Part shown: in pieces, positions 904 to 60,528 of the stretch
How the letters are laid out: every line of letters starts with the position of its first letter
How positions within the stretch are numbered: the first letter of the stretch is position 1
IMG/VR virus record: IMGVR_UViG_3300020049_006862
Coordinates: 1 to 64,000 of that record
Direction: 5' to 3' (one strand)
Origin: a virus
Lineage: Duplodnaviria > Caudoviricetes
Length of the DNA stretch: 64,000 nucleotides
Translations under genes and position numbers: made by a program
Notes under the pieces: model-generated
Databases searched by the model: none
Seen by the model: the letters and a program-made list of their open reading frames with translations, nothing else
Told to the model about the DNA's origin: nothing

Positions 904-1006
904 TATTTGGAGGCTTACGCCTCCTCTTTTTTATAGCTCAGTCCTTCCAGGGTCGATACTAATCTAATTCATTGTAGATATTTTTTTCACCTTATTCTTT
1001 ACTATT

Positions 1007-8415: not shown

Positions 8416-8489
8416 TGTTTCGTAGCTCAATTGGTAGAGCGCCCGCTTACAATGGGGGGAGGTTGCAGGTTCGATGCCTGTCGGAACAC
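8416..8489 (+). tRNA. tRNA-Val(UAC)-like with irregular anticodon stem (possible pseudo-tRNA)
   Basis: TGTTTCG/CGGAACA acceptor, GCTC-AATTGGTA-GAGC D arm, CTTACAA loop, GCAGG-TTCGATG-CCTGT T arm. Confidence 0.7.
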
Positions 8490-8507
8490 CTAAAATTTTT
8501 ATGAATT

Positions 8508-12238: not shown

Positions 12239-12337
12239 TGACTTAATGTTAAAAAATTTTCATATGTTGGAGGGGCCGTTTGCCCCTCCTTCTTTAGCTA
12301 TTCAATATTTTATTCTATTAACTTTAAATTTACAATA

Positions 12338-15348: not shown

Positions 15349-15697
15349 GCACTTGCCTGATGGAACCTTCTTAGCTTCCGACGGCATAAAAAGAAACAAA
15401 GTCTTTTCTGGCGATTACTCCTTAGGGATGATCGTTGACGATGAAGGCGTAGTCGACCAAAATATGGTCTGCGAGCTAATGCTTGGTCCGAAACGCACCA
15501 ATGTGCGAGTAGTTTCGGGCCTTGAAGCTGTTAAGCTCTGGAATACCTGTTTCGGTCAATTAGAGACGGAATTAGAGGAATACAAAACGGAAGAAGGAAA
15601 GTTGATTACTTTCCAAGCATACTTGGAGCGGATGTACGGGGAATCCTATGTGTTCATAGAATGGAGCGATTCGTTCTTAATCTTGAGTAGACAATGA
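15335..15697 (+). CDS. hypothetical protein
   Basis: ATGA overlap with next gene. Confidence 0.6.
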   Translation: MVIYRHLPDGTFLASDGIKRNKVFSGDYSLGMIVDDEGVVDQNMVCELMLGPKRTNVRVVSGLEAVKLWNTCFGQLETELEEYKTEEGKLITFQAYLERMYGESYVFIEWSDSFLILSRQ

Positions 15698-18130: not shown

Positions 18131-18559
18131 ATGATAAAAGAAAATACTAAATTAGTTTTCTATGATGCTTATGTGACTATATTGGATTATTATCCTGAGA
18201 ACCACTTGTTTGAGATAGGAATATTAGATAATGATCGAATGGACGACGAAAATGTACATCCTGACCATTACGCATACAGCGAAATTCATAAATATCCGTC
18301 GTTTTTTATAGGAACTGTAGCTTCTCACTCTTGGGGAGCAAAATGGGGAGATGGTCTCAGAACTGCTAATGATCTAATAGGAACGCACATTGAAACGTCA
18401 CAACTTGAAGCATACTTTATAGGATGTTATAATAAAGATTTTCCAGACGCTATTCACTACGAATACTCCCCTGAATGGGGAAACAATTTCAACTTTTTTG
18501 TTCAAATAAATTCTCTTATATGCATCGTTTCCAGATCTTATTTTATATTCTCTGCTTAG
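18131..18559 (+). CDS. hypothetical protein
   Basis: 142-aa ORF. Confidence 0.6.
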   Translation: MIKENTKLVFYDAYVTILDYYPENHLFEIGILDNDRMDDENVHPDHYAYSEIHKYPSFFIGTVASHSWGAKWGDGLRTANDLIGTHIETSQLEAYFIGCYNKDFPDAIHYEYSPEWGNNFNFFVQINSLICIVSRSYFIFSA

Positions 18560-19122
18560 CAACCCTCACTGGATGCGAGGGATGCGGAGCGCAGAATCCA
18601 GATGATTTAGTACGTGAAAGGGAACTGGAACAAAACAAAGTTCCTATTTCTCCCTACGCTAAATTGCAGTCACCTGCGGACACTTCACCGATTCAACAGA
18701 TCGTTGAACAAGCCCCAGCAAATCCAGAGAAAGCTGTTCAATCGGGTCAGGACGTGAAAATGACTTCTGTGAGCGGCGCAAACTTCATTGTAACATTGAC
18801 GGAGCAAATCGCACTACCTAAATCGGTATCATTTACGCACTACTCGAAACAAAAGACAATAATCAAAGGATCTACTAATTTCGCATTTGGAGAAAGCTCA
18901 ATTACTATCTTTTATGGAAATGCCGTAGGCATAGAATCAAGCGTAGTGTTGAATTTTGTTAGCGACTTTAACAGGGAATTCACTTGTAATGCTACGATTA
19001 TTCGAGCAACTGTTTCTGACAATAAAACCAGATACGCACTTGCGATTCATTTTGACCGTGAGAAGAGCAAAATTGATAAAATCTTCGTAGGCCAAACGAC
19101 CTACTACAAAGAAGGAGGCTAA
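18520..19122 (+). CDS. lipoprotein
   Basis: signal peptide with lipobox LTGC from ATG 18520. Confidence 0.7.
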   Translation: MHRFQILFYILCLATLTGCEGCGAQNPDDLVRERELEQNKVPISPYAKLQSPADTSPIQQIVEQAPANPEKAVQSGQDVKMTSVSGANFIVTLTEQIALPKSVSFTHYSKQKTIIKGSTNFAFGESSITIFYGNAVGIESSVVLNFVSDFNREFTCNATIIRATVSDNKTRYALAIHFDREKSKIDKIFVGQTTYYKEGG

Positions 19123-22380: not shown

Positions 22381-24336
22381 ATGAAAAAATTGATTGCACC
22401 GTATTCCGTTGAAGGAATTGAGAATTGTACCATCGATGAGGCAATTGCCTACCTATCGACAAAGCAGTTACTAGGGTTCGATACTGAGACACGACAAGTG
22501 GTTTCAGCAAAAGCTTCGGGTCCAGGGTTGCACCAGGTTATCATGGCACAAATCGGGGATCAAGAACGACAATATATTTTTGACGTGCGTACCCACCTTG
22601 GTGATCTTGCGCCGCTATGAGCAATCTTGGCGTCACCTAATATCATCAAGGTGGGTACTAACTTAAAATATGATTATCTACAGATGTATGGTACCTTTGG
22701 TATCTACATGAACGGGCTTTGCGACATAATGTTGAACGAAATGGTTTTGAATTGTGGACGAGCAGTAAAGAAGAAATTTTATTCGTTGGAAGGAATGTCC
22801 TCTCGATACTTAGGATACAAATTCAATAACCCGAAGCAAGGATCTTTATTTCCTGAAGATAATTTTTCGAAGGACACAAGGTTAGAGTTCATTAACTTAA
22901 AGGATGAACCTTTCAATAACTCACACGTAGAGTATGGAGCTAATGATGTTATCTTGCCTCTGATGATTCTTGAGAAGCAGAAAGTGAAATTGAAGGAAGA
23001 TGAATTAGAGAAATGCGCCGATTTTGAAAACAAGTTTTTACCTGCTTTAGGATATATAGAAACTTGTGGATTCTACATTAATCAGCAGAAGTGGTTAGAT
23101 AATATTGCTAAACATGAGGACAAAGTAATAGAAACTATAGATATACTTGATGAGTATGTAGCTAAGAAGTATCCTAAATTCAAAGGAATAAATTGGGCAT
23201 CTTCTAAGCAAGTTTCTGTCCTATTTAAGAAAGCAGGATACGATTTATCTGTGGTAGACGAACGTAAGAGTACGGAAATGAATACTGTGTACAGAGATTC
23301 AGTTGAGAAGAAGGTAATTGAGAAGTATGCTGAAAGCAAATTGATTTCGAAGTATATAGAATACAAGAAGGCAGCCAAACTATGTTCTACTTATGGAGCT
23401 AAATTCTTAGAATTTGTGAATCCTACTACTAACAGGATGCATTCATCTTATTGGCAAATTGTAGACACTGGCAGACTTTCCTCTTCTAAGGTGAATATGC
23501 AGAATATTCCTAGAGACCCTATGTTCAGAGAACCTTTTCAAGCTGAACCTGGAAATATGATTGTAAAGGCTGATTACTCTCAACAAGAGGTAAGAATGTT
23601 TGCTTCTTATTGTAATGATAAGAACCTTAAGAGCGTATTTGAAGGCAGTAATAGTGATATACACGCCACGTTTGCGGCAAAGCTTTTCAAGAAAGATATA
23701 AAAGATGTAACCTATGAACTCAGACAGCTAGGTAAAATTGCAAACTTTACTCTTATATATGGCGGCGGGGCAGGTAAATTATCCCAAACAATGGGTATTC
23801 CTCTAGAAGAGGCCAAACAAATTGTCAATTCATATTTTTCTTCTTTTCCAGACGCAAGAAAATATTTCGCAAAAACTTACGCCTTAGCCTTGCAAAGAGG
23901 TTATATCCAAATAGATAATGTTATAGGGCGTAAAACTTATATTAGTAAATTCCACGAATACGATCAGCTTAACAAAATACTAGCTGATTCATATAATGTA
24001 AATCTTGTAGGTACAGAGAAAGTAAAAAGAACTGTTGGAACAATTGCTTCTATAATTAAACGGATGTCGTACAACTATCCAGTGCAAGGCGGTTCTGCTA
24101 GCATGACAAAACTTGCACTTATTTATATGTATGAGTGAATTAAATCAAAGAAGCTATTAGGAATAGTAAAGATTGTTACTACAGTACATGATGAGATTGT
24201 GCTTGAATGTCCTGAAGAAATGGTAGATAGAATAATGGATGTATTGGAAACTTCGATGAAAAAAGCATTCAAAACATTTGTCCCGAATGTACCTTCGGGT
24301 TTAACCATTGAAAAGAGCTACATATGGCCGAAATAA
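22381..24336 (+). CDS. polA: family A DNA polymerase with 3'-5' exonuclease, 2 TGA=Trp (651 aa)
   Basis: ExoI FDTET, TGRLSS, motif A DYSQQE, motif B KIANFTLIYG, motif C VHDE after TGA 24136; other TGA at 22618. Confidence 0.95.
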
Positions 24337-25424
24337 CTTACCCCTTACTGCTCCAATATCAGCCAGTAAATCAAACCACAATTACGTGGTTTGCAGCGGT
24401 AACGCTGATTGTACTGATACTCGGATTTGTAGTTACGAAAGTAACTCATCCGAAGGAGCAGATAGGTTTGGTGTTGATGCGAGTCTCATTTGAGGCGCGC
24501 ACAACCGTGTTCTTACTTTTAACGAGCTTCTTTGGAATAGCAGAAGCCCTGACTGCTACAAGTATTGTACCAGTTGGGGAGCCGGAGTTTGCAATTGCTT
24601 CAAGGTTCTTGAATCACATCCTCATTGCTATCGGCTCTGTCGTTAGTATGATGTGTGCCTCATTCCTAACTAAAGAGGCTTTGGAAGAGCGATTGAAAAA
24701 CAAATTGAAGATTGCAGCGAAATCTACGGAACCAATTAGACGTTTGAAAAGTCATCCAATGGCATGGGCTACAATAGGATTGATGGTGATTGTTTCATTA
24801 TTCTGCGCATTTACCAATATCTATTTGATTGCTTTTGCGGCAGGCGATGCACCACTGTTAATCAACTTCCTACTTCTAGGTGGCGGACTCACTCGGATGA
24901 ACACGATTACTTTGGTGTCAACTTTTGTCGGATTCCTACACTTATTCTTTACACTCGTTGAGGCCGCTATGGTCTATAATGAGCAAAGAATCAAAGACTT
25001 CGAAGATAGTCTAGACAAGAAGAAGAAAAGGGATGAGGAAATAGCGGACAAGAACAAGGCGGAGGCCAGTAGGACTCCTCCAGCAGGGGAACATAACTTT
25101 GAAAACGTACTCGAGTGGACGTTTAACCGTTTAGGCGGGAACAAGGAAGATGAAAAATACAAAAAAGCTAAGAATGCAATTTTAAAGAAAATGCAAGAAC
25201 TTGAGGGAGATAAAACAGATGATTCCCGCAAGAAAATTGCAGGCAGCACTACGAACTTATTTAAGCTGTACACCTCTTTACTTCAAGGAGACAAAAGTCG
25301 AACAACTGCTGAGACTGATAACGAAAAACTTGCACGACAAGCAAAAGAAAACAAAGAGATTAGGGATTTATTTGCTAAATCCGTCTCTCAGGGCGGCTTT
25401 GGTTATACCCTCCCAAACTTCTAG
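24324..25424 (+). CDS. multi-TM membrane protein with charged C-terminal domain
   Basis: about 5 hydrophobic segments; ends in slippery site C CCA AAC. Confidence 0.8.
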   Translation: MAEITYPLLLQYQPVNQTTITWFAAVTLIVLILGFVVTKVTHPKEQIGLVLMRVSFEARTTVFLLLTSFFGIAEALTATSIVPVGEPEFAIASRFLNHILIAIGSVVSMMCASFLTKEALEERLKNKLKIAAKSTEPIRRLKSHPMAWATIGLMVIVSLFCAFTNIYLIAFAAGDAPLLINFLLLGGGLTRMNTITLVSTFVGFLHLFFTLVEAAMVYNEQRIKDFEDSLDKKKKRDEEIADKNKAEASRTPPAGEHNFENVLEWTFNRLGGNKEDEKYKKAKNAILKKMQELEGDKTDDSRKKIAGSTTNLFKLYTSLLQGDKSRTTAETDNEKLARQAKENKEIRDLFAKSVSQGGFGYTLPNF

Positions 25425-25438
25425 GCCCTGACGGGCCT
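25412..25438 (+). other. -1 programmed ribosomal frameshift signal
   Basis: X XXY YYZ heptamer CCCAAAC in correct phase, then AGGCCC-tgac-GGGCCT stem. Confidence 0.65.
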
Positions 25439-25948
25439 CGCTGTAACGATGATTTCTGTTTGTGCCGGGAAGTCCGCAATAGGTACGGTAAAATATCTCA
25501 TAGATGCGAAAAGGACGATTGTTCTAAGAATAGATGTCCCAATTGCGAATACAACTTGACTGATGAGAAATATACAGCTTGTCAAGACTGTACACCAGTT
25601 ATGTGCAGAACCTGTTTCGAGCATAAGAAGCACTTTGTTAAATCACCTTGGACTGGGCAACCTATATGCTTTGATTGTTTACCTCAACACACGATCAATT
25701 TAGAAAGAGGAAGTAAAGAGAAGATGTATAATGTTATGAGGGATTATAACCGCCGACAGGAGAAAGGCATGAAAATTTGTACACAGTGTAAAGAAGAATT
25801 TTACGATTTTAATGGTAAACAAAACTTATGCTTTGATTGTAGAAAATTTAAATGCGAGGAATGTGGTAATGTAGTATTCGAGTTAGATCACCAAGGATTA
25901 TGTAATTATTGTTCATCGAAAAACTATAAATTAGACGGAAATATATGA
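25418..25948 (+). CDS. multi-CxxC Zn-finger domain, probably the -1 frame extension of the 24324 gene
   Basis: about 8 CxxC pairs, no ATG start at its 5' end, frame open from 25379. Confidence 0.65.
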   Translation, partial: LLGPDGPRCNDDFCLCREVRNRYGKISHRCEKDDCSKNRCPNCEYNLTDEKYTACQDCTPVMCRTCFEHKKHFVKSPWTGQPICFDCLPQHTINLERGSKEKMYNVMRDYNRRQEKGMKICTQCKEEFYDFNGKQNLCFDCRKFKCEECGNVVFELDHQGLCNYCSSKNYKLDGNI

Positions 25949-27195
25949 GTAACGCAAAAAACGAGCTCCACGACCGCGCCTTCAAAGCCTGAATGGCATC
26001 CGACCGCAAGGGTAGCTTAGTCCTTGCAACAGGGTCTGGAAAAACCCGTTTGGGAGTACTCGCGCTTTTGGAATGCTTAGAGGAAGATCCAAACGCTAAG
26101 GCGTTGATCGTTGTACCTCAAGTGAACCTTAAAGACAACGAATGGCCGAACGAAATTCAAAAATGGGGTGCTGCTCATCTATCGAACCGCATTAGAATTG
26201 ACTGCGTCCAAACGTTATACAAGATACCTGAATCGGAGGTCCAAACTCCGATAGAAGAATATGACCCATGTACGGCTGCCGCAGGTCCAAACTGCGAACC
26301 GTATACTTTAGTGGTTGTGGATGAGATTCACACCACACTTTCGGAGGAATATAGGAAAGTACACGATATACCTCATGTATATAAGTTAGGACTTACAGCT
26401 ACTGTACCTCAGAACGTGGACTATGCTAAGATCCTAGAGGACGTATGCCCTGTCTTATTTACTTATTCAATTGACGAGAGTGTGGCTGATGGAGTAAATG
26501 CTCCATACGAAGTAATCAATGTATCTGTACCATTCACAAAGGACGAGCAAAAGAAATATTTCATTTATAACAACGGATTTAACGAAGCGAGAAGAAATAT
26601 CATGATGAATAAGGGTCTCGAATTTGGAGATTCCTTTACGCTTGCTCGAAGATATAAGGCAGATAGATCACATCCGCTTCAGCCCTACTGTGCATCCTTT
26701 TGGGCGATGATGTCATTGAGAAAATGGCAATGTTATGGCGCTGAAACGAAGAAGGCGGAAACGATGAAACTGCTTATGAAGTATCCAGATTACAAATGAA
26801 TCGTGTTCTCTAAGACCACAAAGACTATTGAGGAAATACACGAATTATGCAAAGCAGCTGGAATAAATAGTGTGGTTTACCATTCTAAGTTAAAGAAAAA
26901 GGAGAAACAAGCGGCCCTTGAAGCAGCCTCCACTCCTGAGTGCAGAGTAATACTTAGCGCTCAAGCTTTGACTACTGGGTACAATCTGCCCGAAATTGAC
27001 GCCGGAATTTGTATATCCGGAGACTCGTCAAGTATCGTTAATACACAGTCGTTAGGCAGGTGTCTCAGATTTGTTCCGGGAAAACGAGCGAAATTTTTCA
27101 ATCTTTATGTCGGAGACACACAAGAAGAAGTGTGGATTCGCAAAAAGACTTCCTCACTCAGTAATGTTACTTGGGTGAAAAATACCGAATTATAA
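25945..27195 (+). CDS. SF2 DExH helicase, 2 TGA=Trp
   Basis: ATGSGKT, DEIH, LTAT, QSLGRCLR; TGA at 25990 (FKA-W) and 26797 (YK-W-IVFS). Confidence 0.9.
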
Positions 27196-28292
27196 TGGCC
27201 ATGAAAAGCGTTCTACAAGAATACTTGTCACAGGGCATTACCTCTCTATCGTCATCGCAGATGGCGCTTGCCAAGAAAAAAGGCTCATGCTTTTTTTGCG
27301 GTGACGATAGAGTTTACCATAATGCCCCATTTTCAAAGGATCTAGGGATGTGTACCGGTTGTTGGACTACTATGAGGGAGTACATATATGATAGAGTAAT
27401 AATGTTACACAGAAATATTGATTCTAATTACGTTAGTTATATAGTGGATTTCATAATGTACGGAACAATTCCTGAACATTGGGATGAATCTTTTCAGGAC
27501 GTAGTAGCACCTCATACGAGTTATAAGCATATACTTAATCCTTCTATTTCTGGACCAATATTTAAAAAAATATGTACTTTTTGTTTGAAACTTTCTCCAG
27601 AGCCTATTAGAGTAATTCATGGAGAAGTTATTGATATCCATGATGGAAGATTAGATAAAGTAAAACCATACATTAATGTACCAGTAGGCGCTGTCGGAAA
27701 GGGTAAGCACACTGTAGGAGCAAAAGTATATACTTGTCAGGCATGTCTGTATCAGATTAAAAGAAATATAAAATTCTACGGAATTCTCCCAGAAGGATCT
27801 TACGAAATATGTTCTAGATGTGAAGGCAAGTACACAATAACTTCTGAGGAAGCAAATAAAAGAGGTGAAAAATTTCGTAATGGAGAAAGAAAGCCGTATA
27901 TTTGTACTACGTGTTTTAATCAGGTACATGGACTTTATACAGACCCTAAATACAACATATACGGAAGAGAAGAACACTATCACTGCTCTTGTGGTAGACC
28001 TGTACTTATTGACTTAATGAATATTACACACAGGGCAGCATTAGAAAATCTTTACTGCCTTTCCTGTAGCACTATCAATACAGGAGTGAGTTTTACTTTT
28101 GAAGGAGATAGGAATGAGACAGTCTCTATACACGTTACAGGAGAACTTTTTGGTGATGTCATCAAATATACGTTTTTAACTATGGTAAAGAATGGACAAG
28201 ACGACAGAACAGAAGTGTTTGAAGTAAGTAACGAAAAATACGATCTCGAATTTGATGCGTTTTGGGCTGGTGTGATATCTTATTTCACATGA
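27195..28292 (+). CDS. Cys-rich Zn-finger protein
   Basis: multiple CxxC; ATGA overlap at 3' end. Confidence 0.75.
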   Translation: MAMKSVLQEYLSQGITSLSSSQMALAKKKGSCFFCGDDRVYHNAPFSKDLGMCTGCWTTMREYIYDRVIMLHRNIDSNYVSYIVDFIMYGTIPEHWDESFQDVVAPHTSYKHILNPSISGPIFKKICTFCLKLSPEPIRVIHGEVIDIHDGRLDKVKPYINVPVGAVGKGKHTVGAKVYTCQACLYQIKRNIKFYGILPEGSYEICSRCEGKYTITSEEANKRGEKFRNGERKPYICTTCFNQVHGLYTDPKYNIYGREEHYHCSCGRPVLIDLMNITHRAALENLYCLSCSTINTGVSFTFEGDRNETVSIHVTGELFGDVIKYTFLTMVKNGQDDRTEVFEVSNEKYDLEFDAFWAGVISYFT

Positions 28293-28555
28293 ATAATTTA
28301 CTTATGGAGAGCTCAAACAGTTTTGTCGTGTTCCCTACAAGTGACGGCAACGACCAGTATCATGTGACGATTATGACATTTGGAGATTTTCCATTTGCTG
28401 ATAACTACGTAAGTGTTCAAATACTCAGACCAAATATTACACAAAGAAATGCTATCTGGGAAGAAGTAGAGACATACAATGGAAGTTACGGTAGTTATGC
28501 AGATATTGTAATAGACGCTTGCCAAAGAATTTATAAACATGCACAATCACACTGA
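28289..28555 (+). CDS. small protein, member of tandem paralog array
   Basis: C-terminal YADIVIDAC motif. Confidence 0.6.
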   Translation: MNNLLMESSNSFVVFPTSDGNDQYHVTIMTFGDFPFADNYVSVQILRPNITQRNAIWEEVETYNGSYGSYADIVIDACQRIYKHAQSH

Positions 28556-34421: not shown

Positions 34422-35228
34422 ATGCTTCTCGCACGAACTTCAGAGCACCAGCGGCATTTTGCCAAAAGATTGAATTCCGGAAAAATTACTGTGAATTTTG
34501 GCTCACCAAAAGTGATCAAAGGACCAGTATTGAATAAGACAGAAAACGTAGTGGCCGCCTTTGATCGGAACAAAGCGAACTTTCTTTTGAATTCCTATGG
34601 AATCAATGTTCCTAAAAGCATTAGGGCACAAGATTTGTTTAACAATGATCAATTGGATTTAAGCCGCTTACAAGTCCGCGGCTTTACATACCCAATCATT
34701 GCCAAAAGAAATGGGCTTTGTACTCACAGAGTCTCGATTCTGAGTAGCATAGACGAATTGATGCGAATTTGCCTTAGTGACAACGTTAAGGAAATCAGCT
34801 TGGAGCAGTACATTCGAAATTGCCAAAGTTATCGGATTTACACGATACCCGCTTTGAGCGGTAAGAGTGTGGATTATACTATCAACGGCCACCCATATCA
34901 AGATTCTTTGGGAATCCCGTTCGCTGTGAAACGTAATTTGGAATTGGCGGAAAACAGCAACATGTATAAAACTAAGAGTTATGAAGTGAACGATGCTCTA
35001 AGCATTGAAAGTATGCCGATAAGCTGGTTGTTGATGCTGCGGAGCGCGGTGAAGGCTACGAGAGTGCTGGGTTTGGATTTTGCTTCAGTTGACATGTTGT
35101 ACAATCCGTATTCTACGGAATACTTTGTAGTTGGAGTTGATCCAGATTGTCCATTTACCTCAAGCAAGGAGATCAACGATCAAATCGCTGAAGCCCTTGT
35201 TCAGGGAATCAAACTCATCCTGCCATGA
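34422..35228 (+). CDS. ATP-grasp (RimK/YheC-like) protein, divergent
   Basis: YPIIAK, EQYI..YRI, LGLDFASVDM; lacks ExN. Confidence 0.65.
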   Translation: MLLARTSEHQRHFAKRLNSGKITVNFGSPKVIKGPVLNKTENVVAAFDRNKANFLLNSYGINVPKSIRAQDLFNNDQLDLSRLQVRGFTYPIIAKRNGLCTHRVSILSSIDELMRICLSDNVKEISLEQYIRNCQSYRIYTIPALSGKSVDYTINGHPYQDSLGIPFAVKRNLELAENSNMYKTKSYEVNDALSIESMPISWLLMLRSAVKATRVLGLDFASVDMLYNPYSTEYFVVGVDPDCPFTSSKEINDQIAEALVQGIKLILP

Positions 35229-36532
35229 TTACCGTATCGAAACATCAGAGTTCTCTAAAGGAGTCGAAGCTGTTTGAAAGGCTTGATCATTATATGCGAA
35301 AATTGGAAAATGATCCTTCTAATTTTTTAGAAAGAAGTCTGGCCAGTAAAAGAGCTGGAGGGAATCTGAAAATTATAAGAGAAAAAGCTTTTGAAACTCT
35401 TTTAGGCATTTTCGAAAGGGATGATATTTTCAAGCAGGTTACATGGGCAACTGAAGATGAGGCTAACTTAATCATTAGGACCAATATTCACAGAACATTA
35501 GGAGCCAGTATGGATGATAACATGCAGCCTTTTGAAGATTCAGGAATACTGTTTTATCAAGATGGTGTTGTAACGAACTACGCTGAACTCGCTAAGACTT
35601 ACGACATTCCGTATATACCAGGAAGACACTCAGATGCTTATGTTGTGTCTCAACTTTTCTTTAAGTTCGGTGAAGAAATTTTCCAATACTTAGAAGGAGA
35701 GTATGCTTTTGTTTGGACAGTTGAAGATGAGATCTTTACTTACAGTAACATCCCATTCTATATCTACCGGAACAATGAAGAATTCCACCTGACAACTTCT
35801 GTCGTAGTTAGTAATTTTCTACGGACTCTGATTCAATCCTTTCCTGAAGAAGAGCAGCTGAATTATGAAGTAATTGATGAGAAAGAACCGCTTATATGGA
35901 TACATACCGAACATAATGCTCAACCGGAATTAAGTCGCACCTACCCTAACACTTTTAATTTTCATTACTCAGGAATAGGAAATAGATTGTTAGACATTGA
36001 TTTCAAGGAGAACTTGACAATGAATGAACAAGGAGCTATAGTACCTGCGGTAGATAGCTTACCTGTTGTGTTGGAGAAAGGAAAGCTCATGTTTTGGAAT
36101 AAAGATAGATGGGTAGATTTATACACGTACATTACAGTATGTACGGACGAACCTGTCATTTATCCCCTTTATTCCGGGGCGAAATACGAAGTGAGTATTA
36201 CTAGGACTACGTTGAAAAAAATAGAAGCTTCCAACAATTGGGAACGAGCTTTATTTAATAAACTAAGCTTTGATCAATACCGGAAGTATTTTAAAGTGCC
36301 AGAAGTATTGCCTACCTATGTACATCCAGCAGAAGATGAAAAAGAATCATTGTTTGTACTTCTCATAAGAGCGCTTGCTAACTGTCCTCGTTACGAGGAT
36401 TCGTTTCAGCAAGGTATAGCTATCTTAGGAGTCGTGTTCAAAACGATGATGGAAAATCATGAAGATAAATCTGCTCGCCGAATCTACAAGGTACTAAAGA
36501 GATTACATGACTACATAAAAGACAAGCAGTGA
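35225..36532 (+). CDS. class II (Ntn) glutamine amidotransferase-like, divergent
   Basis: MQPF, QDGVVTNYAEL, SD, EGEYAFVW; no N-terminal Cys. Confidence 0.55.
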   Translation: MITVSKHQSSLKESKLFERLDHYMRKLENDPSNFLERSLASKRAGGNLKIIREKAFETLLGIFERDDIFKQVTWATEDEANLIIRTNIHRTLGASMDDNMQPFEDSGILFYQDGVVTNYAELAKTYDIPYIPGRHSDAYVVSQLFFKFGEEIFQYLEGEYAFVWTVEDEIFTYSNIPFYIYRNNEEFHLTTSVVVSNFLRTLIQSFPEEEQLNYEVIDEKEPLIWIHTEHNAQPELSRTYPNTFNFHYSGIGNRLLDIDFKENLTMNEQGAIVPAVDSLPVVLEKGKLMFWNKDRWVDLYTYITVCTDEPVIYPLYSGAKYEVSITRTTLKKIEASNNWERALFNKLSFDQYRKYFKVPEVLPTYVHPAEDEKESLFVLLIRALANCPRYEDSFQQGIAILGVVFKTMMENHEDKSARRIYKVLKRLHDYIKDKQ

Positions 36533-41994: not shown

Positions 41995-44900
41995 TTAGGG
42001 TCGTATCTGAATATCCTGTTCTGTTGCATTCTCGATAAACTTATTGATATCGTAAGCAGCAGATAAAAGAACTATGTGTCTTTGTAACTGATTGATTCCT
42101 CGGAAATCTCCATCCTTAGTAAATGCTCGTTCATCTCCAGCTACGTAATAAGCAGAGCCTATAAACATATCTGAAAGAGCAGTAGATAATCCCCATGCTT
42201 GCCTTGCTGTTGCTGGCCAAGCATTGTTCGAAAGAGTATCCTTCATTACTGCGTACACGTTCCAACTCTGAGAGTAATTCTCCATAATTCTACGGTAATA
42301 TTTTCTCCAAGAGTTATCGTCGTCTGCGCCAGCAAAGAGTAGTAAGTACCCGCCCATAATTAATCCTATGGTGGCCATTGTAACTATAAAGTCTACAACT
42401 ACTTCTCGCTGATATTCGGAAAGCTCATCCCACTTGTATGCCTCGTTAGAATACTTATTAAGTCCAAGTCTAGAAAGAAGTTTAAAAGCTTTTGAGTCAG
42501 TAGGAACATCCCATCTAAGTGGGAGCAATGAACCTAATAATCCAGTAAGTACTCTCCATCGTCCTTCCATAACTCTGGCGTGCCAAGTATAAACATCCTC
42601 TGTTCCCTCGAGCTTTTTGTAGTAGCCCCAAGTCTCAATGGTACCTTTAGTTGCGAACATATTCTTAAGTAAGTTCGGAATGAACTTCTTAAACTGTAAG
42701 AACAGTTCACCTAAAAGATAGTACTCAAGATGTGTGCGTTCATCTGGACGATATCCACCATTGATATATTCGTATACATAATACATGCGACGTATTTCAT
42801 TAGTATCAAGTTCGCCAAGTTCTCTAAGAGAGCCGTCAGGATTTTGAATCTTACCTCTTATATGGCCATCTCAACGTACATCTTTGTAGGTAACGCCTGA
42901 AGCATCGACTACATCTTCTACGTTGTATCTATCCCATAAAGACTTACCAGCAGTTTTCATTCGTCTCATCTGTGCTGCCATAGTTATCAGAGCAATTCCT
43001 TCTTCTGGAATTCTGTGAAACATGTACATAGTAGAAGAGGAGAACATATGATTACGAGTAGTCTTATACTGAGTAGAGTCAAGCGACCAATCATAAGCAT
43101 TAGGCATGTAGTTAAACTTCTTAGCAAGAAGGAACATCTTGTTCTCTCTAAGTTTACCCATCATAGCATCTTTCTGCATGTTAAAGTATTCTTTACTGGC
43201 CCAAGCAACGTCTCTTACTGTAAAAGAAACTTGATCACCGTCTACACCAAACATTGGAGCACCAGTGCTAAGACTGCCTTTTAGCCCTTCTTTAAGAAGA
43301 ACCATGTAAGTAAAGACACCATTAGCCGTGCCAGCAAGAGGTTTTAGCCACATGATAGGGGCAGCCGCAGCTGACTTCAGGGATCGAATAGTCTTAATCC
43401 AGTTAATTCTATTCATACCCCCAAACTCGTTTCTGAGACCACTTTCTTGCCTATGTTGTAAAGGTTTAGTAAGTTGCCATTTACGTCCTCGAACTTGCAT
43501 TTCTATCGCTGTTTCTAAGTACTTAATAGTATTAGAGTAATCTACTCCAGTACGATTATCACCTTTAAGTTGTAGATAGAACTGCATAGCTTTACCAATT
43601 GTATAGATATTATCTAACTCATCTTTATAGATTAAGTTACGCATCATCTTATCAAATTGAGCTTCAGCATTGAGCGAATAGTTCTCAGAAGAATCTATAT
43701 ACTTGTTACCGAGATACTTGATAGGAATCGCTTCTACTTCATTGAAAGTTTCTTCGTACGTATCTTCTACATGAAGAGTGAAATTCTGTTTAATGAATTC
43801 CTCGCGATAAGACTTATTAAGTATAGTCCCATGTTCTTCAAGCATTTTATACGTTTTAGGAAACCACCCGTCGTAGTGCTCGTACTTTTCGTATCCTTTA
43901 AATAAACGCTGTTTGTTCGTCAGATCTAAGTTACTTAAGATAACATTAGAAACATCTCCTCTATCAATAGCTATACCAACAGTAGCAGCTTTCCCACCTA
44001 CTTTTGTAAGTTCAGCTTTATAGTGCTTGTTCATGTAGTCTACTAATTTGCGTCGAGTTTCCCACTCACCAAGTTCCGGGTAAGCTATTTTAGCTTGTGC
44101 CCATTCCTGCTCAGTAGTGCGCATCTTCTTACCTAAGTTCTCACCTGTTGATGCATCTATTCTATCAGTATACATCCATTCCCAAATCCGAGTAGAAGAA
44201 TATAAGTTCAGCTTCCCTTTTAATCCCGGAATATATTCAGTAATAGATTTACCGTGCGCTTTCTCGTAATCTGAGACAATGACATCACGCATTTCCATAA
44301 ATGGTCTCCATATCGCATTATATCTATCGTTAGCTTTCTGCTTTGCTTCCTTCAAGTTCTTATCAAAGTATTGGAGATAAGCTGATTTCATGTTAGCATT
44401 AGAGCCTAACCATAAAGACATAGTACTGATATCTTGAACACCTACTAAGCCGCCTTCAATCTTATCCTGATATTTAAGTATCTTGTCGAATAACTCGGCA
44501 GCTTTATTTACGTTAAGCGTTTTCTGTTCAGAGAATTGTTTCTCGTGATCATACAACACCAAAGCACGAAGTTGCTCCATATCAGTTTCAAGCTGAGCTT
44601 TGATAGCTCTATCTTGAAGAACACTCTTAGCGGCAGTAGTAGAGGAAGCATCGTATTCTTTAGGATCAAAAAGTTTTCTGAAGTTTTCTTTACTCATCTT
44701 AGATTGAAGGTAGTCGTACATCGACTTATCTCCTTTCTTCATTTCGTACTTCATTACCTTTTCAATCATCTCTAAGAACGGTTTAACTTCTACCTTAGCT
44801 CTATGGTCATACAACAGGGCATTCTCTTTAGAAGGAACCCAAGCTATCTTAAGATCTCTAAATCGTACATCTGGCTTTTCAGTCTTAAGTAAGAAAGCAT

Positions 44901-47900
44901 AAAGCATAACCTGCAACTTTGCCATATTACGAGGAGACTGGCTAATTAGCATATCTTCAGAAGAGCCCCAACGAAGGATCATATTGTTAGTTTCCTTGTT
45001 GAATCCCCAACCTGATTTCATCTCAATTAAAGAAAGAAGATTGTCTGGGTGATACACCATGATATCCACAGTACCAGCCATATCAAGTAGAGAAGAGTGC
45101 ACCGTGAATTCAGGCACAATTCTATCCTTGTCTTCTTCCGGCACCGCATCAAAAGTATTGACTCCCATCTTTCGATAGATGTCCTTGTAAAAGTCATTCT
45201 CCGTCACCCACTTGTAAGTGCCTTCAGGAAGATTTCCTTTAATCTCAAGATCAGATATCCTTTGTCGAATCTTAGCTTGTTCCTCTTCACTTTGAGTAAC
45301 TGCTAGCTGCATGTATGCGTGCATCAAAGAACCCTTAGATTGAAGTTCATTTTGCTGTCCGCGAAGGATTGCTTCATATTCTTCTTCTGTAAGATTAGTT
45401 CCCCGATCAGTATTTCTGCGTGTACCTTTCTCAGCTCCCTCAAACCATTTCGCCGCTTGAGTAGAGGCCCAGTCATAGGCATCATCAGTAAAAGGTCTTG
45501 GTCTAAAGAAGTTAAGAGCACCACTTACAGCTTCATTTATGCGAGTAAGTTGTTCACCGCCTTTGATATAAAACTTAGAGTCTTCTGAAGGAAGAGAAGC
45601 AGTATTCGAGTATTCTTTCAAATCCTGTAATCCAGGAGGGTCGTTAGGATTTCTCTCTACTGCGAAGTATACATCCTTAGTTTCAGAATCAGCTGTTTCT
45701 ACTTTATGTACGTATTCTTTGTAAGAGTTTCCTTTTGCGTCTACAGAATCTTTCTCTTCAACTTCAAGAACTCTTACAATACGAGCTTGAGTTCTAAAAA
45801 CATCTAAAGCATTATATATGTAGAATTTTTCTCCGACATCAATTTTTACTCTTAAACTAACATCATTAAGAGCGGGGTTACGTACCTGATGAGTCATGTA
45901 CTCAAAGCCGTAGCGTTCTTTCAGAGGTCTAACCTTGATTGCGAATTCAAAGTCCTCTATTCTAAGATCAGGAACCATAACATGAGTTTCTCTAGCAGCA
46001 ATTCGTTTGTACAAAGCGCGAGCTATTGGAATTCCTTCTTTTGTAACTCCGGCTACTGTACCCATTAGTACGTATAAAGTATTGTCTACTCTGCGCTCCT
46101 CACGATCTCTAAACTCGGTTCTGAACCATTTCATAGGTTCCGGCATCTCACCTTTTTCGTTGAGCTTAAGCTCAATTTCACGGTCAAAATAACCCACACC
46201 TTCTTCAAACCCAGCGTAAGGGGAATTAAACTTCTTGGTATTCTGAGGTCTTTCTACAAACTGAACTCTGTTTCTAGCTCTTATTGAAGTATCCGCTACC
46301 TGAACTTTCTTTATGTTAGTTATCATTAAGTTAAGTTCGAAGTTGTCAGCTATTTGGTCAATACGCTCGGTTCCTTTTACTACTAATAAGTTATATTGAG
46401 AATCTTGGTCAGTAATCTTATCGTAAGGGATCTTAGAAGAAAGAGAAGAACTCTTAAATTTCAAACCCTCAAAGATCATTGCAAAATCTACAATAGCATC
46501 TTGAATAGTAGTATCGTTTCCTTCAGGATCAAAAGTAAATTTCTTCGTCTCCTTATTCCAAACAAACTTCGATAGTTCATAGAAGTTTTCACGGAGCTCT
46601 TGGAGATCATCAAACAGCACTTTGCCTAAGCCTGTAAGCCTAGCTTGAGTTAAGTCTCCAAAAGAAGCTATCTCAGTAGATTCTACAAGTCTATTCAACT
46701 CTTTCAAACCAAGTCTAGAAGCTCTTACGTCTTCAGTCCTTGCAGCCGTAATATACTCTTTTAAGAGTTTAGCATAATACATAGGCCCATATTCGTAGCT
46801 CCGTGCAGCAGGATCATAGATCTTAGGGTCGTGGAGTTTCTCATACATAACAGCAGAAGCAAAGTACTTACTCAACTCTTCGAGTAAGGTCGCCTTGTCC
46901 ATTTTGTTTTCCCCCCAACTATCAAAGTGCGGCAGTAATCTGGTAACCATAGACATATACTTAGGCCCGTAGATCTGTACATTAGTAGAAATAGTATACA
47001 TCAAATTATTGTGTATATCTATAGAAGCCCCGATGTGAGGATTCTCTTGTACGAAAAGAGGAGCATCAAAAGCAAATGAATCACGGAGAACTGCTTTACT
47101 AGTGTTACCTTCAAAAGGAGATCTAGTATCAGAAGTAGGTAATTTCTGCTGCTGGATACCTGTAAATATTCCTCCAAGTTTGGTATCTAATTTTACGATG
47201 TCCGTAACAGTAGAAGGAAAGCTTCTAAGAATTTTTAAGGATGTAGCAAGTTCACCTATATCTTCACCAATCAAGTGCGCTTTCTGGTAAATCTCAAGAG
47301 CAGCTATTCGTTCAGCTATACTACCTTCGCCTTTAACTACTGCGGCAAGTCCAGTATCACTTAGTAAAGGAATCTCTTCCCCTTCTTTAAGTTGTTTTCT
47401 CAAAGCAGCAATCTGATCTTTAATTTCTTTCTGCTGATTATAAACATTAAACTTGTTAATGTCCTTAATCTCAGGAAGTTGTAAGATCTTAACTGCTTCG
47501 TATAACGGCATACCTAAAGCAAGCATAGCTACAAGAACATTACCTGTCTTAATATTGATACCCAGAGGATATAAACCTTTCTCTTTCAAGTTGTCAATAG
47601 CAAGGTTTACAAGTCCGTCTAAGTATTGCCAAGAAGAGTGGCCAGATTGTAGGTCTTCATTCTGAAGCTGGTTAAAGTCGAGTACTTTACCTCCTACTTC
47701 CATTTGCCAGGCAAGTTCTGGTTTAACGAAAGGTCTTCCTTTATCAGGAGAACCTGTTGCCAAATAACCTAGAGCTTTCATAGCATTAGCAAAAATACCT
47801 GTAAGTCTAGCACCATCTTGCATAGAAGCGAAGGCTGTGTACCTGTTATTAACAAGAGACAAGTCAGTATCAATTCCTAAACTAGAATCAATTCCATCTT

Positions 47901-50900
47901 GACGAAGTTTATATAAAGCAGATTCTGGATTCTCGGGATTATTAAAGACTGACATAGTAATAGGAACGAGAACTCGATCCCTATTCTTAGGATCAGTAAT
48001 AATTGAAAGAACATTCTCGATGATGATTGCCTTAGCAAACTTCTGTTGAATTTCTTTCCAAGCCTTTTCTACCAGTGCCCTTTCTTTCGTATTCCGTTCG
48101 TCAATACCAGCAAGTTTCAGATCGAAGTACATCTGATACTCACTGTATAGTTCTTTCTTAAAGACATATTTACCACCTTTCTTTTCGTAGCCTACATAGT
48201 CAGTAGCAATGTCCCCAAGTAATAATTTCTCACCTTTGGTGAATTTCTCACGAACTACTACAGTAAGAGTATCAACGTCAAAATCAGATCCGTGTAAGTA
48301 TACTACCTGAAACGGAACAATAATTACATTAGTGTCTTGAGAATCATAAATACCTACTACCTTAAGTGGAATAGCTGAGTGAAGTTCAGTCGAAGGGAGG
48401 CGGAAACCAAACATGTCAGCAGTAAGGAATATTTCTTCGCCGCGTCTAACAGCAGCTTCAAGTTCTGGATCAAGCATTCCTTTAGGAACAAAAGATTCAG
48501 CATAATAGCTGTTAGCTGTTTTGACGTATCTAAGTGGTTTATCTCTCTTAGGAAAATTAGGATTATTATACTTTCCAGTATACTCCTCTGCCTGAAGCAC
48601 AAGTTTAGCGCCTTTGAATTTCACAGCGACGGTAAACTTCTCCATGATAGCGGAGAGCTGTGAAATTACCTTAGGAGCTACAAGAGGATTCATAAATGAA
48701 ATACCAGCCTTAAGCAAGTCTTGTACTACTTCAGAACCTGGAGAAGTAAGGGAACTAGTCAACTTACGACGCAAGTCAGTTTCGTTAAACTCATCCAATC
48801 CTTCTCTGAATAAGAAGTTCAAAGCTCTGTATACTTCAGTAGCAGCTTCAGTGTTAGTTTCTAAGATGTTTAGGAAGTAGGTTAACTGGGTAAAGAGTGA
48901 CACCTTCTTATCCACCTTAGCTTTAGCATTGAACTGTAATTTGTAGTCAGCATTGTTCAAACTAAGAACAGAAAGAGGATTAGCCTCTACATTACCTAAA
49001 CCATCTACTGTATTCATAGCTCCTGCAGGAGGATTACCTACCTTCAAAGCACTATTAAATACCAGCTCATCCAGCTCATTCTTAGTCATGTACTCATTTA
49101 CCTTCTGGAATTCAGGGAAATTATCTATAAGTTCTTTTGAAAGGACTACAGAAGAATACTTAACATAAGCTGGTCGAGGTTCCATTACATTCTCTGAATC
49201 TTCACCGGCAGTTGTTTCTTGAATAGAGTTACCGAAATAAACTGGTTTGTTTACCTTACCAAGTCCGTAAGCAGCACCGTAACCATTGTGTAAATCAGCC
49301 CATCTTTGAGCAGACATAAATCCTTGAGCATCGGTAGATTTGAAATCTTCGAAGAATCCTAACATCTCTTCTAATCTCTCAGGAGTAATATCTGGAATCA
49401 GATCTTTTAAGAAAGCTTCAATAACAGCCTTACCCCTCTTACGGTCATTGATTACGCCCATTCTAAACTTCTCTTTCATCCCTCCAACAGACTCGCCCAC
49501 TAAAGGAGATTTACCTGGAGCAAGAATACCGGCCATACGCTTGACGATATCATCTTCACTTTTGTAAAGATTATAAGGTCCAGTGAATAACTGATTAAGG
49601 TGGTAAGAATTGACATACTCATTCATTACGAAAAGAGTGACCAATGGTTGATAGTACTTAGCTATTTCCTCTTCGTTATACTTAGGATTAGACTTCCTAA
49701 CAGCTATGGATTTAGGTAAAGTATCTGGAACTTTTAATTCCTGTCTGAGCTGCGCCCCGACAGATTTAATTCCAAATATAGAACCATATAATGCTTCAAT
49801 ATTAGGAGCAAATTCAGCATTGTTATCGAGAAGCTGATTCATGTATTCAACTGCCTTAAGCTCTAATTGAGACATAATGTTGTCTACCAAAGCGTCTTCG
49901 GTAGCATTTTCTCCTAGCTGTTCAACAGCTTTATCGTACAAAGAGAACATTAAGTTCTTCTTCTTAGTTACACCAAGAATAGAAGAAAGATTTAACGGAG
50001 TTTTAACCTGTCTTACAGCTGCTTTTAAACCTTCTTTTACTTGAGCCTTGGTTAACACGTTAACTTCTACACCTGGAATACGCGGCTTATCTGACGGCTG
50101 GTATAAGAAGTTTATATACTTACCATTCGAATTACTACGTAACATATCTAAAAAAGCAAAAGAGAACGCGCGCGATTCGAAGTGCGCAGAATTCTCATTA
50201 GTAAATGTCTTTACAGTGCCGGTAGATTTATTATTAGAAGAATCGTGCTCAGCGTGTCCGTGTATCTTGTTAATACCTTTAACAAAGATGTTGTTCGAGA
50301 AGAAATCAGTCTCTAAATGTTCAGGCCTATTTTCAGCCATAAACTCTAAACGACCAGTTGAACCTAAAACTTCTGAGTCTTTAGATTTAGTAAAGTATTC
50401 TACAATCTTATAAAAATAAGACGAAGCAGAAAACTTATACATAGAGTTCTTGTCACCATTAAGAATTGAAGTCGGTCGAAGAGAGAGGCTTTGTTCTTTA
50501 GCAAGCTTAGATAAAGCAGCCATGAGAGAGAAGGAATCATTCAAAAATTCATCTAAATCTTCAGCTGGTTTAAGCTGCATCGCTCTCTTAGTAAAGAAAC
50601 CAAACTCAGTAATAACATTAAGAACTGTAGAGTTCCTATTCATATTAGGTTTGATTGGTTCAAATACATCAGTAAGCTTAAACGCTTTGATATAAAGGTT
50701 AGCAGCTCTAGCTGGATCAACAGCTTTCAGTCTTTCGGCTTCTTTCACATCTTCAGAAAGAGCAACCGAAGCAAACCCTTGTTTAAGATGTATAGCTTCA
50801 AGATTAGCTCTAACATAAGAAAGATAAGATTTTTCTATACCATATCCAGATGCTTCTACATAGCTGAACTTCATTCCTGTCTCAGGATCTTTCTTACTCG

Positions 50901-53900
50901 GTACAGGTACGAAGCGCTTAACAGCAATCATATATCTCTTCTCAACAAGTGATCCAATACTATTCTTAAGTTCGCGCAAAGTGTTACGAGCATTAGCCGC
51001 AGCCATTTGTTCGTTAAACTCCTTAATATTAGTTACTATACCATCAGCAAGAAGCTTCTTATACAAAGACCGATAAGATCCGATGTGATTGTAGATGTAC
51101 TCAGCATTTTGAAGTTTAGGAGAAGCGTAGCTTTCGTTCACTAAGTTAGCATCTTTTACTACACGAATTCTAGAACCATTAAACTTAGACTCTATAATGT
51201 GAAATCTTACAGAAGGATTCTTTTGTGCTCCTTGAGCATCATGTACCAATTGATCTAACTTAGCCATAATAACCTTATCAAGACTTGCAAACTGTCCATC
51301 ATTTGCTCTCTTTTGCTTCTGCCAATTGTCTAAATTATTAAGATCAAAGTTTTCGAGAATAAGTTGAGTTGCTACTACAAAAGTATGCGATGGGTGAATG
51401 TACTTATCTTTTGAAGCAAGGTTAGAAGGCTTGAATGGATTAGGTAAGAAGCTTAGAAACTCTTTGATCGAATCACTAAGTCTAGCCTCTTCATCCACCA
51501 AAGATGAATCTTCAGTCTCATTCTTAAGTCCTTCAGAGTCTGAAGCAGTATCATTAAGAACAAAGCTTTCGAGTTCGGAGAAGAACTCAATTTCTTCTTT
51601 ACCTATTACTGATGCATTAGGATAAACAAGTTCTAAGAGAGTAAAGAACAGTTCTTTTCCTTCTTTATCTTGTTTAAGTAGCGCATCCAGTGCGGACAAA
51701 CTCTTATGCTCTATTTCAGTTTTACCCTCTTTACGCGCTAAAGTTCTTCTCTGATTCTTCAAACTATCTAAGGCAGAAGTAATCATCTCTTCTTTGGAAA
51801 GCATAAGCTTTGTTTCAGAGAGGAAGTTACCTTCTACGTGATTATTCAAGAAAGCATGAAGAGCATCGTACATCAAGTTCCGAGCAATGCGGAAGTTAAT
51901 TACGCTACCAAAGTTAGCTTGCATAAATGCGGCAGTCTTAACATTCATGTTAGGAGCACTGAACTTATAGTCTTCATTCTTTGGCATTTCGTTCAAGTTA
52001 TCTACAAAGCCTTTCCAATTAGCGTTTACAAAAGTAGTCAAGGCCTCAATACGATTACGAAGTAAGTCAACCATGATAGGAAGATCCTTTTCGTACGTAA
52101 TAAGTTCAGCTAACACCTTCTGCATTTCTATTGCACCTGCGTTACGGCCAATCATTCCTTTGTTAGCAAGCTGTACGAACAATTGATTCTTCTCTTCTAT
52201 GGTAAGAACCTTGTTCCACATAGAATTGATTACCTCAAGAAGTACTCCTTCATAGTATAAAGGAAGTCTGTTAATAGCAGCCTTGGCTAATGCTTGAAAA
52301 GGTTTCATAATCGATCTAAACTTAGAAGGGTCTGGTCCTTTGGGAAACTCTTGAGCATACTTGAATACATCTTTAGTAACTGATTCAGATGTAGTGGCTT
52401 CAGGGAATAGAGCCTGAAGTACAGTCTTACCTCCTTCAGGAGTATATTCACGTATCTCTTGAATAATATCTATTGCTGATTTCTCAAGTGCCCAGAATTC
52501 ATCGCCAGTTTGATCTTGAATCATTTCTTGTTGAAACTTCGCTAATTCAGCAATCTTTGTTGATTTTTCTGAATCGCTAAGATCGGTAGATGCTATTATC
52601 TCTTTAGCCTGTTCAAGTAAAATAGGATCTGTAAAGGTTGCTACTAAATCAAACGAAAGAGTAACTGGAGCAGTAGTTGTTGAAGGATCTAAGTATAATT
52701 TCAGAGCAGCTAAAGTCATGTCATAAACATTACTCTCACTTAAACCTAAGAATTCAAAAATAGCTTGTAATACTCTAGAAAGTAAATTACTATTCTTAAC
52801 AGGAATAGCTGATGCTACTTCAGCAAACTTAGGATTAGAAAGGTTAGCTACAAACTCTGCAATCGGAAATATAGCTTCATTATCCTTAGCTCCTTTAGGA
52901 ATCTCAGTACCTTGCATGATTGTCTCCAAATCAAGATTGTTAGTTTTTACGTACTGTAAAAATATGTCTCTCAATTCAGTTAAACGCTCTTTCAATTCTT
53001 GCTCTTTTTGAGTAGGTTTAGGATTCTGAAGAGCCTTTATAGTTGCTGCATGTGTTAATTCGTGAGCATAGATTTCTCCAAATTTTAAGAAAGACTTTGC
53101 CGGGTTATAAACAATTATAACATTCTTACCGTCCACAAATGTTACAGCCGAGAAATCCTCAGGCATGGAATTGACATCAAGAACAGGTGTCATGAATACA
53201 TTTGTAAAATCAGCCACAGCTAATGTTTTAGCTAATTCCTGCCCAGATTCAAGTTGAGAGGCATTACCTTCTGCCTTTACTTCTGCGTCGAATTGTAAGT
53301 TAATTAAAGTTTTTCCTCACTGAGACAGATTTGATTCTAGAAATCTTGCACCTCCTCCGATAGTCGTAATAATTGGCAACTCTCAGTTCTGAAAGTTAGA
53401 CCAGCCTTTGAGTTTTATTTCGATACGAATATCGCCTTTCCCTGTTTGAATATTTCCTAACTCTACATTAGGAATATTTCTCTCAAATCATTCAGTCAGA
53501 ATAGTCTTTAAACTTTTACCTTCGATTGGCACATAATCGAAGGTTACTTTTTTAGTATCATTGTCATATCCTATTTCAAAGAAGTCTTGTATTTCTTCTG
53601 GTATAAGCTCGTTCCCAACTTTGCTAAGTTCTTCCTGTCTTCTCCTTTCTATGTCATCTATTTTAGCATTATCTACTATTGGTTTAGCTATTGAGATAGA
53701 TCCTGAATAAAGAGTAGGATCAACCTGAGTTAAATTATTCTTATCGTAATTCTTACGTATAGGAGTAACAACTTTAGGTTTAGCTGGTTCAGAAGGAATA
53801 GTACTAAGACCTACAGTAGTAGGAGTAACTTTCTGAAGCCTTGAATGCATCAAAGAAGAAAGACGATCAATACCTTTAATGTTAGTTCCTTTTGCTACGT

Positions 53901-59900: not shown

Positions 59901-60528
59901 AAGCTGTCTGAGTATTTAGACCTGTAGCTGTATTTACTTTAGTAAGAACATCGGCTAACTTTTTACCTTGTCCCATACCGTTAAGTAACTTGGTAGCAGA
60001 CCCTACTTTAGCAGTCAATGTGGAAGGAACATAAGCAGAAGCTAAGAAAGCTAAGGCATCATACCCATCTCTAGCCCAAAACTCTGCAGTTCCTGCACGC
60101 TCTAAGAAGTTACCTTCAGCATATTGCCTAGAAATATGTACTGGAGCTGAATCTTTAATTCCTTGTTCTAAAGAATTAAAAGCATTCACTATCCCATTAT
60201 CTCAAATATCATTTACTTTTCCTGGACCCATTGCCCATAGAGCGCCGCCTACATAACCTAGACCGGCACCTACTTTTGGCAGTATAGAAAGGCCTGCAGA
60301 AAACAAGCCATTCACATGTTTCTTAAGAGCTGACTGTTGCTGTCCTCGATAGTACATTTGTTCTATCTCAGGACTTAACAATGAACCTTCGTAGACTGCG
60401 GAAGAGATTCCCTTATCATACTTTCCCAATTGTCTAAGCGGAGAGAATCCTGTGCGTTGGGCAGCTACATTAGTTGTGGGTCTAAGGCCAGATAAACCCT
60501 GGCCCGGACCTCCATTATTTTGTGTCAT
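41995..60528 (-). CDS. giant virion cargo protein (~6177 aa) containing crAss-type RNA polymerase, 5 TGA=Trp
   Basis: four track ORFs share one frame joined by TGA at 60202, 53488, 53383, 53317, 42871; GSDFDVD (48271-48291), HELTH, SF1-like P-loop and PD-(D/E)xK motifs. Confidence 0.85.

Follow-up and report, generated by a model that had tools for sequence, protein, structure and literature searches.

The 64,000-nt window analysed here is the first part of a single 110,204-bp contig from a tailed phage (IMG/VR record IMGVR_UViG_3300020049_006862; Duplodnaviria, Caudoviricetes) that reads TGA as a sense codon, Trp. Within it we characterized the junction of two open reading frames (ORFs) lying between the genes for a family A DNA polymerase (PolA) and a superfamily 2 (SF2) helicase. 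The first ORF encodes a predicted membrane protein, and the second, which lies in the -1 frame relative to the first, encodes a Cys-rich sequence with putative zinc-binding motifs (hereafter the zinc ORF). The last codons of the membrane-protein ORF read CTC CCA AAC TTC TAG and contain a heptamer at which two tRNAs could slip one base backwards, followed by a GC-rich hairpin. We propose, with moderate confidence, that a programmed -1 frameshift by tandem slippage at this heptamer is the best single explanation of the locus. The features of the junction are as follows, numbered from the first nucleotide of the window.

24324..25424 (+): membrane-protein ORF in frame 0, 366 aa, with an ATG start, a TAG stop at 25422-24 and no in-frame TGA.
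25412..25418 (+): in-phase slippery heptamer C CCA AAC of the X XXY YYZ type, with the P-site CCA going to CCC and the A-site AAC to AAA.
25419..25422 (+): 4-nt spacer TTCT, with the stem base at +11 relative to the first nucleotide in the P site.
25423..25438 (+): perfect 6-bp GC hairpin AGGCCC-tgac-GGGCCT with a 4-nt loop, beginning within the TAG stop and lacking a T-tail.
25418..25948 (+): -1 frame after the shift, 176 codons to TGA 25946, with an ATGA overlap with the helicase ATG at 25945.
25442..25522 (+): N-terminal Cys/His segment, recognized by its pattern, with Cx4C knuckles CNDDFC and CEKDDC.
25460..25462 (+): TTG, the only canonical start candidate ahead of the first ATG in the -1 frame, preceded by 22 nt that are 18% A and 41% GC.
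25535..25678 (+): 8-Cys module A, Cx2C-x11-Cx2C-x4-Cx2C-x17-Cx2C, with a weak RING-like zf-UDP match (E 0.034).
25778..25912 (+): 8-Cys module B, Cx2C-x13-Cx2C-x4-Cx2C-x12-Cx2C, with a sub-threshold FYVE_2 match.

The ATG of the membrane-protein ORF overlaps the end of PolA by 13 nt. Its product has 5-6 predicted hydrophobic helices between residues ~20 and 217, followed by a 149-aa Lys/Glu-rich tail, and thus agrees with a preliminary description of this DNA, made from the sequence alone, in which the 366-aa product was called a multi-transmembrane (multi-TM) protein. Whether five or six of these helices cross the membrane leads to opposite topologies of the C-terminal tail. The ORF matched no family in Pfam or PHROG.

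After TAA 25376-78, the -1 frame stays open from 25379 to TGA 25946-48. It reads ...PKLLGPDGPR and then becomes Cys-rich, with eight CxxC pairs and two Cx4C knuckles; CNDDFC occupies 25442-59, upstream of TTG 25460, and CEKDDC follows 17 residues further on. The open frame, its Cys richness just after the site, the eight CxxC pairs and the lack of an ATG start had all been described previously, and each of these points stands, while the end of the ORF may lie further downstream than had been stated. There is no internal in-frame TGA before 25946, and if TGA 25946 is itself read as Trp the frame extends by this Trp and 23 more codons to TAG 26018-20 (200 codons). The zinc ORF may therefore be read through TGA 25946 to TAG 26018. 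The first in-frame ATG, at 25601, lies inside module A and splits it. The regular spacing of the CxxC array indicates that the -1 ORF is coding.

The two 8-Cys modules resemble FYVE- and RING-type cross-brace zinc fingers (FYVE_2, PF02318; zf-UDP, PF14569) in that the pattern Cx2C-x11-13-Cx2C-x4-Cx2C-x12-17-Cx2C occurs twice. They differ from these families in scoring below the Pfam gathering thresholds, in lacking the FYVE basic motif and in giving no confident predicted fold. Against the FYVE_2 gathering threshold of 27.2 bits, the whole ORF scored 19.2 bits and module B alone 23.1 bits. A sequence search of the PDB with the -1 ORF returned nothing significant. A second Cys-rich ORF lies directly 3' of the helicase at 27171-28412 (+) and encodes 413 aa under genetic code 4, with seven CxxC pairs and three in-frame TGA codons; no similarity between it and the zinc ORF could be detected, and it is not recognizable as a paralogue.

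The preliminary description had also reported an in-phase X XXY YYZ heptamer at the end of the upstream ORF with a GC-rich hairpin 4-5 nt downstream, and both were found as described, the spacer being exactly 4 nt. The zone open in both frames spans 25379-25424 (14 codons) and includes the heptamer, as expected of a -1 frameshift site. The hairpin lies within the interval of ~4-9 nt downstream where a stimulatory structure is expected, and its 6-bp stem ranks in the top 2-3% of positions, while being short relative to classical stimulators. Its folding energy is -9.9 kcal/mol (centroid), and that of the 35-nt downstream window is -11.2 kcal/mol. We estimated how often such an arrangement would arise by chance in this genome. 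In-phase heptamers occur at 0.36% of codons in its genes, which gives 5% for a 14-codon overlap zone, and an equally stable downstream fold is found at 3% of all heptamers and at 1.7% of random positions. Perfect GC-rich 6-bp hairpins are scarce, with ~9 distinct examples in 110 kb (12 overlapping calls versus 1.6 expected). The joint chance of heptamer plus hairpin is then ~0.0015 per junction (about 0.05 x 0.03), so that ~0.05 such sites are expected per genome, given 35 gene junctions at which the downstream gene is in the -1 frame. A chance origin of the signal is unlikely but not negligible given the many windows that were scanned.

Other roles for these elements were tried and rejected. 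The hairpin does not qualify as a transcription terminator because it lacks a T-tail, unlike the true terminators at 909 and 12270; these clear intrinsic terminators (window 909-924 and 12270-12288, both +) have a GC stem and a T-rich tail and lie directly 3' of plus-strand genes. A pseudoknot was rejected because the 4-nt loop is too short, and read-through of the TAG because frame 0 beyond it is not Cys-rich and closes at 25703. Rfam gave no family in 24000-26200, and a DNA pattern scan for the heptamer plus stem gave one match only, an unrelated terminator. Elsewhere in the window, the ORFs 18131..18559 and 18475..19122 overlap by 85 nt and an in-phase G GGA AAC is present at 18478-18484, just past the downstream ATG; this heptamer is probably due to chance.

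If the -1 frameshift operates, most ribosomes would stop at TAG 25422 and release the 366-aa membrane protein, while some would be held up by the hairpin, which lies 4 nt downstream at the mRNA entrance, with the P site occupied by CCA and the A site by AAC. The two tRNAs would then slip one base back, to CCC and AAA, and translation would resume in the -1 frame to give a trans-frame product of 365 + 176 = 541 aa, or 565 aa if TGA 25946 is Trp. Because the A-site tRNA-Asn would be retained, the junction is predicted to read ...TLPN/LLGPDGPRC (slash at the junction), and the predicted junction tryptic peptide is ...GYTLPNLLGPDGPR. The two isoform lengths given in the preliminary description, 366 and 541 aa, were thus computed correctly, with the slippage that would generate the longer one standing at about even. 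Slippage is probably inefficient, since AAC performs poorly as an A-site codon in bacteria such as E. coli, and in that case the 366-aa protein would predominate. The long isoform would consist of the membrane domain, a charged linker and a C-terminal zinc array made up of two Cx4C knuckles and two 8-Cys cross-brace-like units. It could be a membrane-tethered nucleic-acid- or protein-binding factor co-expressed with the replication genes. The earlier suggestion that it anchors replication is speculation from the position between PolA and the helicase, and the topology of the tail, including whether it is cytoplasmic, is ambiguous (5 or 6 TM helices).

The proposed site shares with classical tandem-slippage -1 sites (dnaX, A AAA AAG; lambda G/GT, G GGA AAG; T3 gene 10, C CCA AAG; IS1, A AAA AAC) an in-phase heptamer with a nearby stem-loop and, as predicted here, a short frame-0 product and a longer trans-frame product with a common N-terminus. 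It differs from the dnaX, lambda G/GT and T3 gene 10 sites in having AAC rather than AAG as the A-site codon, and from the classical sites generally in that the stem has just 6 bp, the spacer is just 4 nt and nothing resembling a Shine-Dalgarno stimulator is seen upstream, the host probably initiating translation without Shine-Dalgarno pairing. The setting differs as well. In phages -1 frameshifts are usually found in tail chaperones, capsid genes and transposases, whereas here an orphan membrane protein in a replication module is concerned, and the gene is not dnaX either. The mechanism is already known, and the novelty lies in the setting, in which a zinc-finger array would be appended to an orphan membrane protein of a phage that has recoded TGA. 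If true, this would be a -1 frameshift outside the usual phage contexts that gives a membrane-anchored zinc-finger isoform from an orphan gene. To our knowledge frameshift signals are essentially unstudied in host lineages that initiate without Shine-Dalgarno sequences, and the locus would, on the same condition, be a compact test case for such signals and for layered translational control in recoded phages.

Several observations weigh against a frameshift. The stem is short (6 bp), a spacer of 4 nt is among the shortest known, and in E. coli AAC slips poorly in the A site. Over the 96 nt surrounding the site, structure does not exceed that of shuffled sequence (z = 0.01). Of the 35 gene junctions of the -1 kind, 4 carry an in-phase heptamer, and at the other three of these the downstream gene has its own ATG. 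Upstream of TTG 25460 the -1 frame stays open over just 27 codons, which is unremarkable with TAA and TAG as the stops (chance ~0.4). Codon-usage frame scoring could not place the frame switch, and an AF2 model of the -1 ORF was uninformative (pLDDT 39). Furthermore, neither ORF has a homologue in the databases searched, and there is accordingly no conservation support for the signal. With blastn no useful match was obtained among phage records, and with both ORFs as queries no homologue was found by peptide-pattern scans of IMG/VR, in the ESM Atlas or, to any useful degree, in a word-indexed search of 5.8 billion proteins. An exhaustive phmmer search of the zinc ORF against 1.84 billion representatives recovered only its own 70-aa gene call and three spurious repeat proteins (bacterial Ig/cadherin-like repeats, polyubiquitin and a PH-domain protein). 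A synteny search anchored on PolA in IMG/VR and metagenome contigs yielded relatives at 28-37% identity with no TM or Cys-rich neighbour, and a cluster look-up returned two known contigs only. The second of these contigs is identical to the first at the site and carries no evolutionary information on the signal.

The strongest alternative to a frameshift is that two separate genes are present, the zinc ORF starting at TTG 25460 either de novo or by reinitiation after TAG 25422, 36 nt upstream. Its product would be 162 aa (186 aa with TGA read-through), and the heptamer and hairpin would be coincidental, or the hairpin would serve RNA stability or processing. The TTG is in frame, and a start there leaves a tidy ligand set (C, H, C, C) before module A. 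GTG or TTG also seems to serve as the start codon of a few other genes of the phage, and the short open stretch upstream of the TTG and the heptamers present by chance at -1 junctions (4 of 35, as given above) fit this view. We assessed the TTG with a position weight matrix (PWM) of start contexts built from 63 ATG starts. Its context scored -4.4, compared with a mean of +1.25 for real starts (44% A, 27% GC); only 3 of the 63 real starts score lower, which puts it in the lowest 5%, and 71% of random TTGs score higher. The probable GTG and TTG starts of other genes, by contrast, score well (+2.6 and +6.0). Between the stop and TTG 25460 there is also an ATG in another frame (25449), which is nearer the stop and would compete for reinitiating ribosomes. 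Separate initiation also leaves to coincidence a GC-rich stem that lacks a T-tail and directly follows a stop, which is rare in this genome, as well as its joint occurrence with the heptamer at the low chance given above. It would in addition leave the Cx4C knuckle upstream of the TTG untranslated. This knuckle mirrors the next one, which suggests, as soft evidence, that coding begins before the TTG; we put the probability of two Cys codons in 12 random codons at P ~0.05 as our own estimate rather than a computed value. Independent initiation at TTG 25460 had been named in the preliminary description as an outcome that would refute the frameshift, and we judge it unlikely on account of its poor context, yet with enough weight left to be taken seriously. 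Were it correct, the locus would be ordinary.

An improbable alternative is that a former single ORF with TM and zinc-finger parts has been split by a true frameshift mutation, leaving a split gene or pseudogene, or by a sequencing artefact that is shared between assemblies, so that the signal is accidental. The two frames overlap by just 45 nt, as they would around a single indel, and no relatives with an intact version are known for comparison. The 366-aa protein is also encoded on a second contig (JGI 3300020047, 109,924 bp); its alignment to the window over 7,101 positions shows 153 differences, none of them within 23368-26345. As two diverged contigs from independent assemblies are identical at the site, an assembly artefact is unlikely, which also speaks against the indel error in reads that the preliminary description had allowed for; with identity over 3 kb, the two contigs could nevertheless share a recent mutation. 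Against such an indel, no long homopolymer is present at the site, both halves are still open and intact, and a random indel would not be expected to create an in-phase heptamer with a correctly spaced stem. The only other broken frame in the genome is that of TerL, the product of an essential gene for which a pseudogene is not possible in a viable phage. About 130 of the 153 differences between the two contigs are crowded into 21.6-22.7 kb, with a second cluster in 26.3-27.1 kb, a mosaic, recombination-like pattern.

The interruption in TerL also bears on whether this phage recodes stop codons by other means. It lies outside the window and is given in genome coordinates.

Genome 97,179-97,189 (-): TerL interruption, GGC TAG GT A, five codons past an intein (CHPIG...TGN).

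A 5-nt skip at this TAG restores the P-loop GSRGFGKS and leads into a 584-codon C-terminal frame that has no start. In a crude ORF list this C-terminal part of TerL was the only other start-less ORF abutting an upstream stop. We regard the site as a candidate stop-hop, homology demanding some recoding at the TAG. The phage thus tolerates or exploits recoding next to a TAG, a precedent for recoding at the membrane-protein stop.

A bypass of the T4 gene 60 type, in which peptidyl-tRNA-Phe would leave TTC 25419-21 and land on TTC 25454-56, 35 nt further on (junction ...TLPNF/CLCR), is very improbable. In its favour, the take-off and landing codons match, the take-off codon is immediately followed by TAG, a compact tetraloop stem begins within the stop as in gene 60, and TerL of this phage appears to require a 5-nt hop (GGC-TAG-GT). 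Against it, in about one case in two a Phe codon would lie within 15 codons in the correct frame anyway, TTT 25453 one base earlier competes and lands out of frame, the first Cx4C knuckle would be skipped, and long bypasses are extremely rare. Compared with gene 60, where a stop likewise follows the take-off codon and an identical codon lies downstream in the new frame, the hop here would span 35 nt instead of 50 nt, the take-off codon lies outside the stem, and the codon match is not statistically meaningful.

Beyond the -1 frameshift itself, we consider it improbable, though worth stating, that the phage stacks several recoding devices (TGA as Trp by way of its own tRNA(UCA), the TerL stop-hop, and the TAG-adjacent -1 shift or 35-nt bypass) and that the present site is a regulated switch of isoform ratio. 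Such a switch would set the ratio of the plain membrane protein to a membrane-tethered multi-zinc-finger factor within a replication module, in a host without Shine-Dalgarno initiation.

The genetic code of the phage bears on the annotation of the junction and of its neighbours, which are listed here together with two RNA genes in genome coordinates.

22381..24336 (+): PolA, family A DNA polymerase, upstream neighbour, 651 aa, with two in-frame TGA codons as sense.
25945..27195 (+): SF2 helicase, downstream neighbour, 416 aa, with two in-frame TGA codons, at 25990 and 26797.
Genome ~101,332-101,425 (-): tRNA with a long variable arm and anticodon UCA (loop CUUCAAA), a weak tRNA-Sec-like Rfam match of 26 bits.
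Genome 100,470-100,928 (-): phage-encoded transfer-messenger RNA (tmRNA), Rfam match of 49 bits.

Under code 4 the coding density is 91%, and 116 in-frame TGA codons are present genome-wide versus 395 TGG codons. As expected of a TGA-to-Trp recoded phage, in-frame TGA codons occur in conserved genes, namely PolA and the helicase, and the alignment of PolA to Taq Pol I carries on across TGA 24136 into the VHDE motif. Two giant minus-strand ORFs (window 41995-60528, -) become a single 6,177-aa ORF when TGA is sense. Also expected of such a phage is its own tRNA with anticodon UCA, which is present and is the probable opal decoder; it was matched by Rfam but not detected by ARAGORN. TGA-to-Trp phages with their own suppressor tRNA are known among gut and crAss-like phages (bioRxiv 10.1101/2021.08.26.457843; PMC7886860). 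Our phage resembles the stop-codon-recoded phages in having in-frame TGA in PolA, the helicase and many other genes together with a phage-borne tRNA(UCA), and is unlike them in that both the membrane-protein and zinc ORFs avoid in-frame TGA and the zinc ORF ends at an ATGA overlap. Standard-code annotation is badly wrong for this genome, splitting PolA, the helicase and the 6,177-aa ORF alike, and annotation of the junction must use TGA as Trp. The preliminary description missed both the reassignment, which alters the neighbouring genes and possibly the 3' end of the -1 ORF, and the tRNA(UCA). PolA is 651 aa long, whereas the ORF under the standard code has 503 aa. Reading TGA as Gly (code 25) is unsupported, as the helicase N-terminus ...AFKA-TGA appears to suit the ...A-W common in ResIII-type helicases.

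Gene starts genome-wide show no Shine-Dalgarno motif, are nearly always ATG and have A-rich leaders. A-rich leaders without Shine-Dalgarno motifs suggest a Bacteroidota-type host.

Four ATGA or GTGA junctions, at which the TGA of an upstream gene falls on the next start, are present at 15694-15697, 25945-25948, 35225-35228 and 36529-36532. Strict use of code 4 would make these four gene pairs overlap by 25-76 nt, which hints that TGA may still stop some plus-strand genes, for instance before the suppressor tRNA accumulates. The sole tRNA found by ARAGORN, at window 8416-8490 (+), is odd: its anticodon is ACA (nominally Cys), its first pair is T-A and its anticodon stem contains a G.G mismatch. 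Were A34 deaminated to inosine, this tRNA could decode UGU, UGC and UGA.

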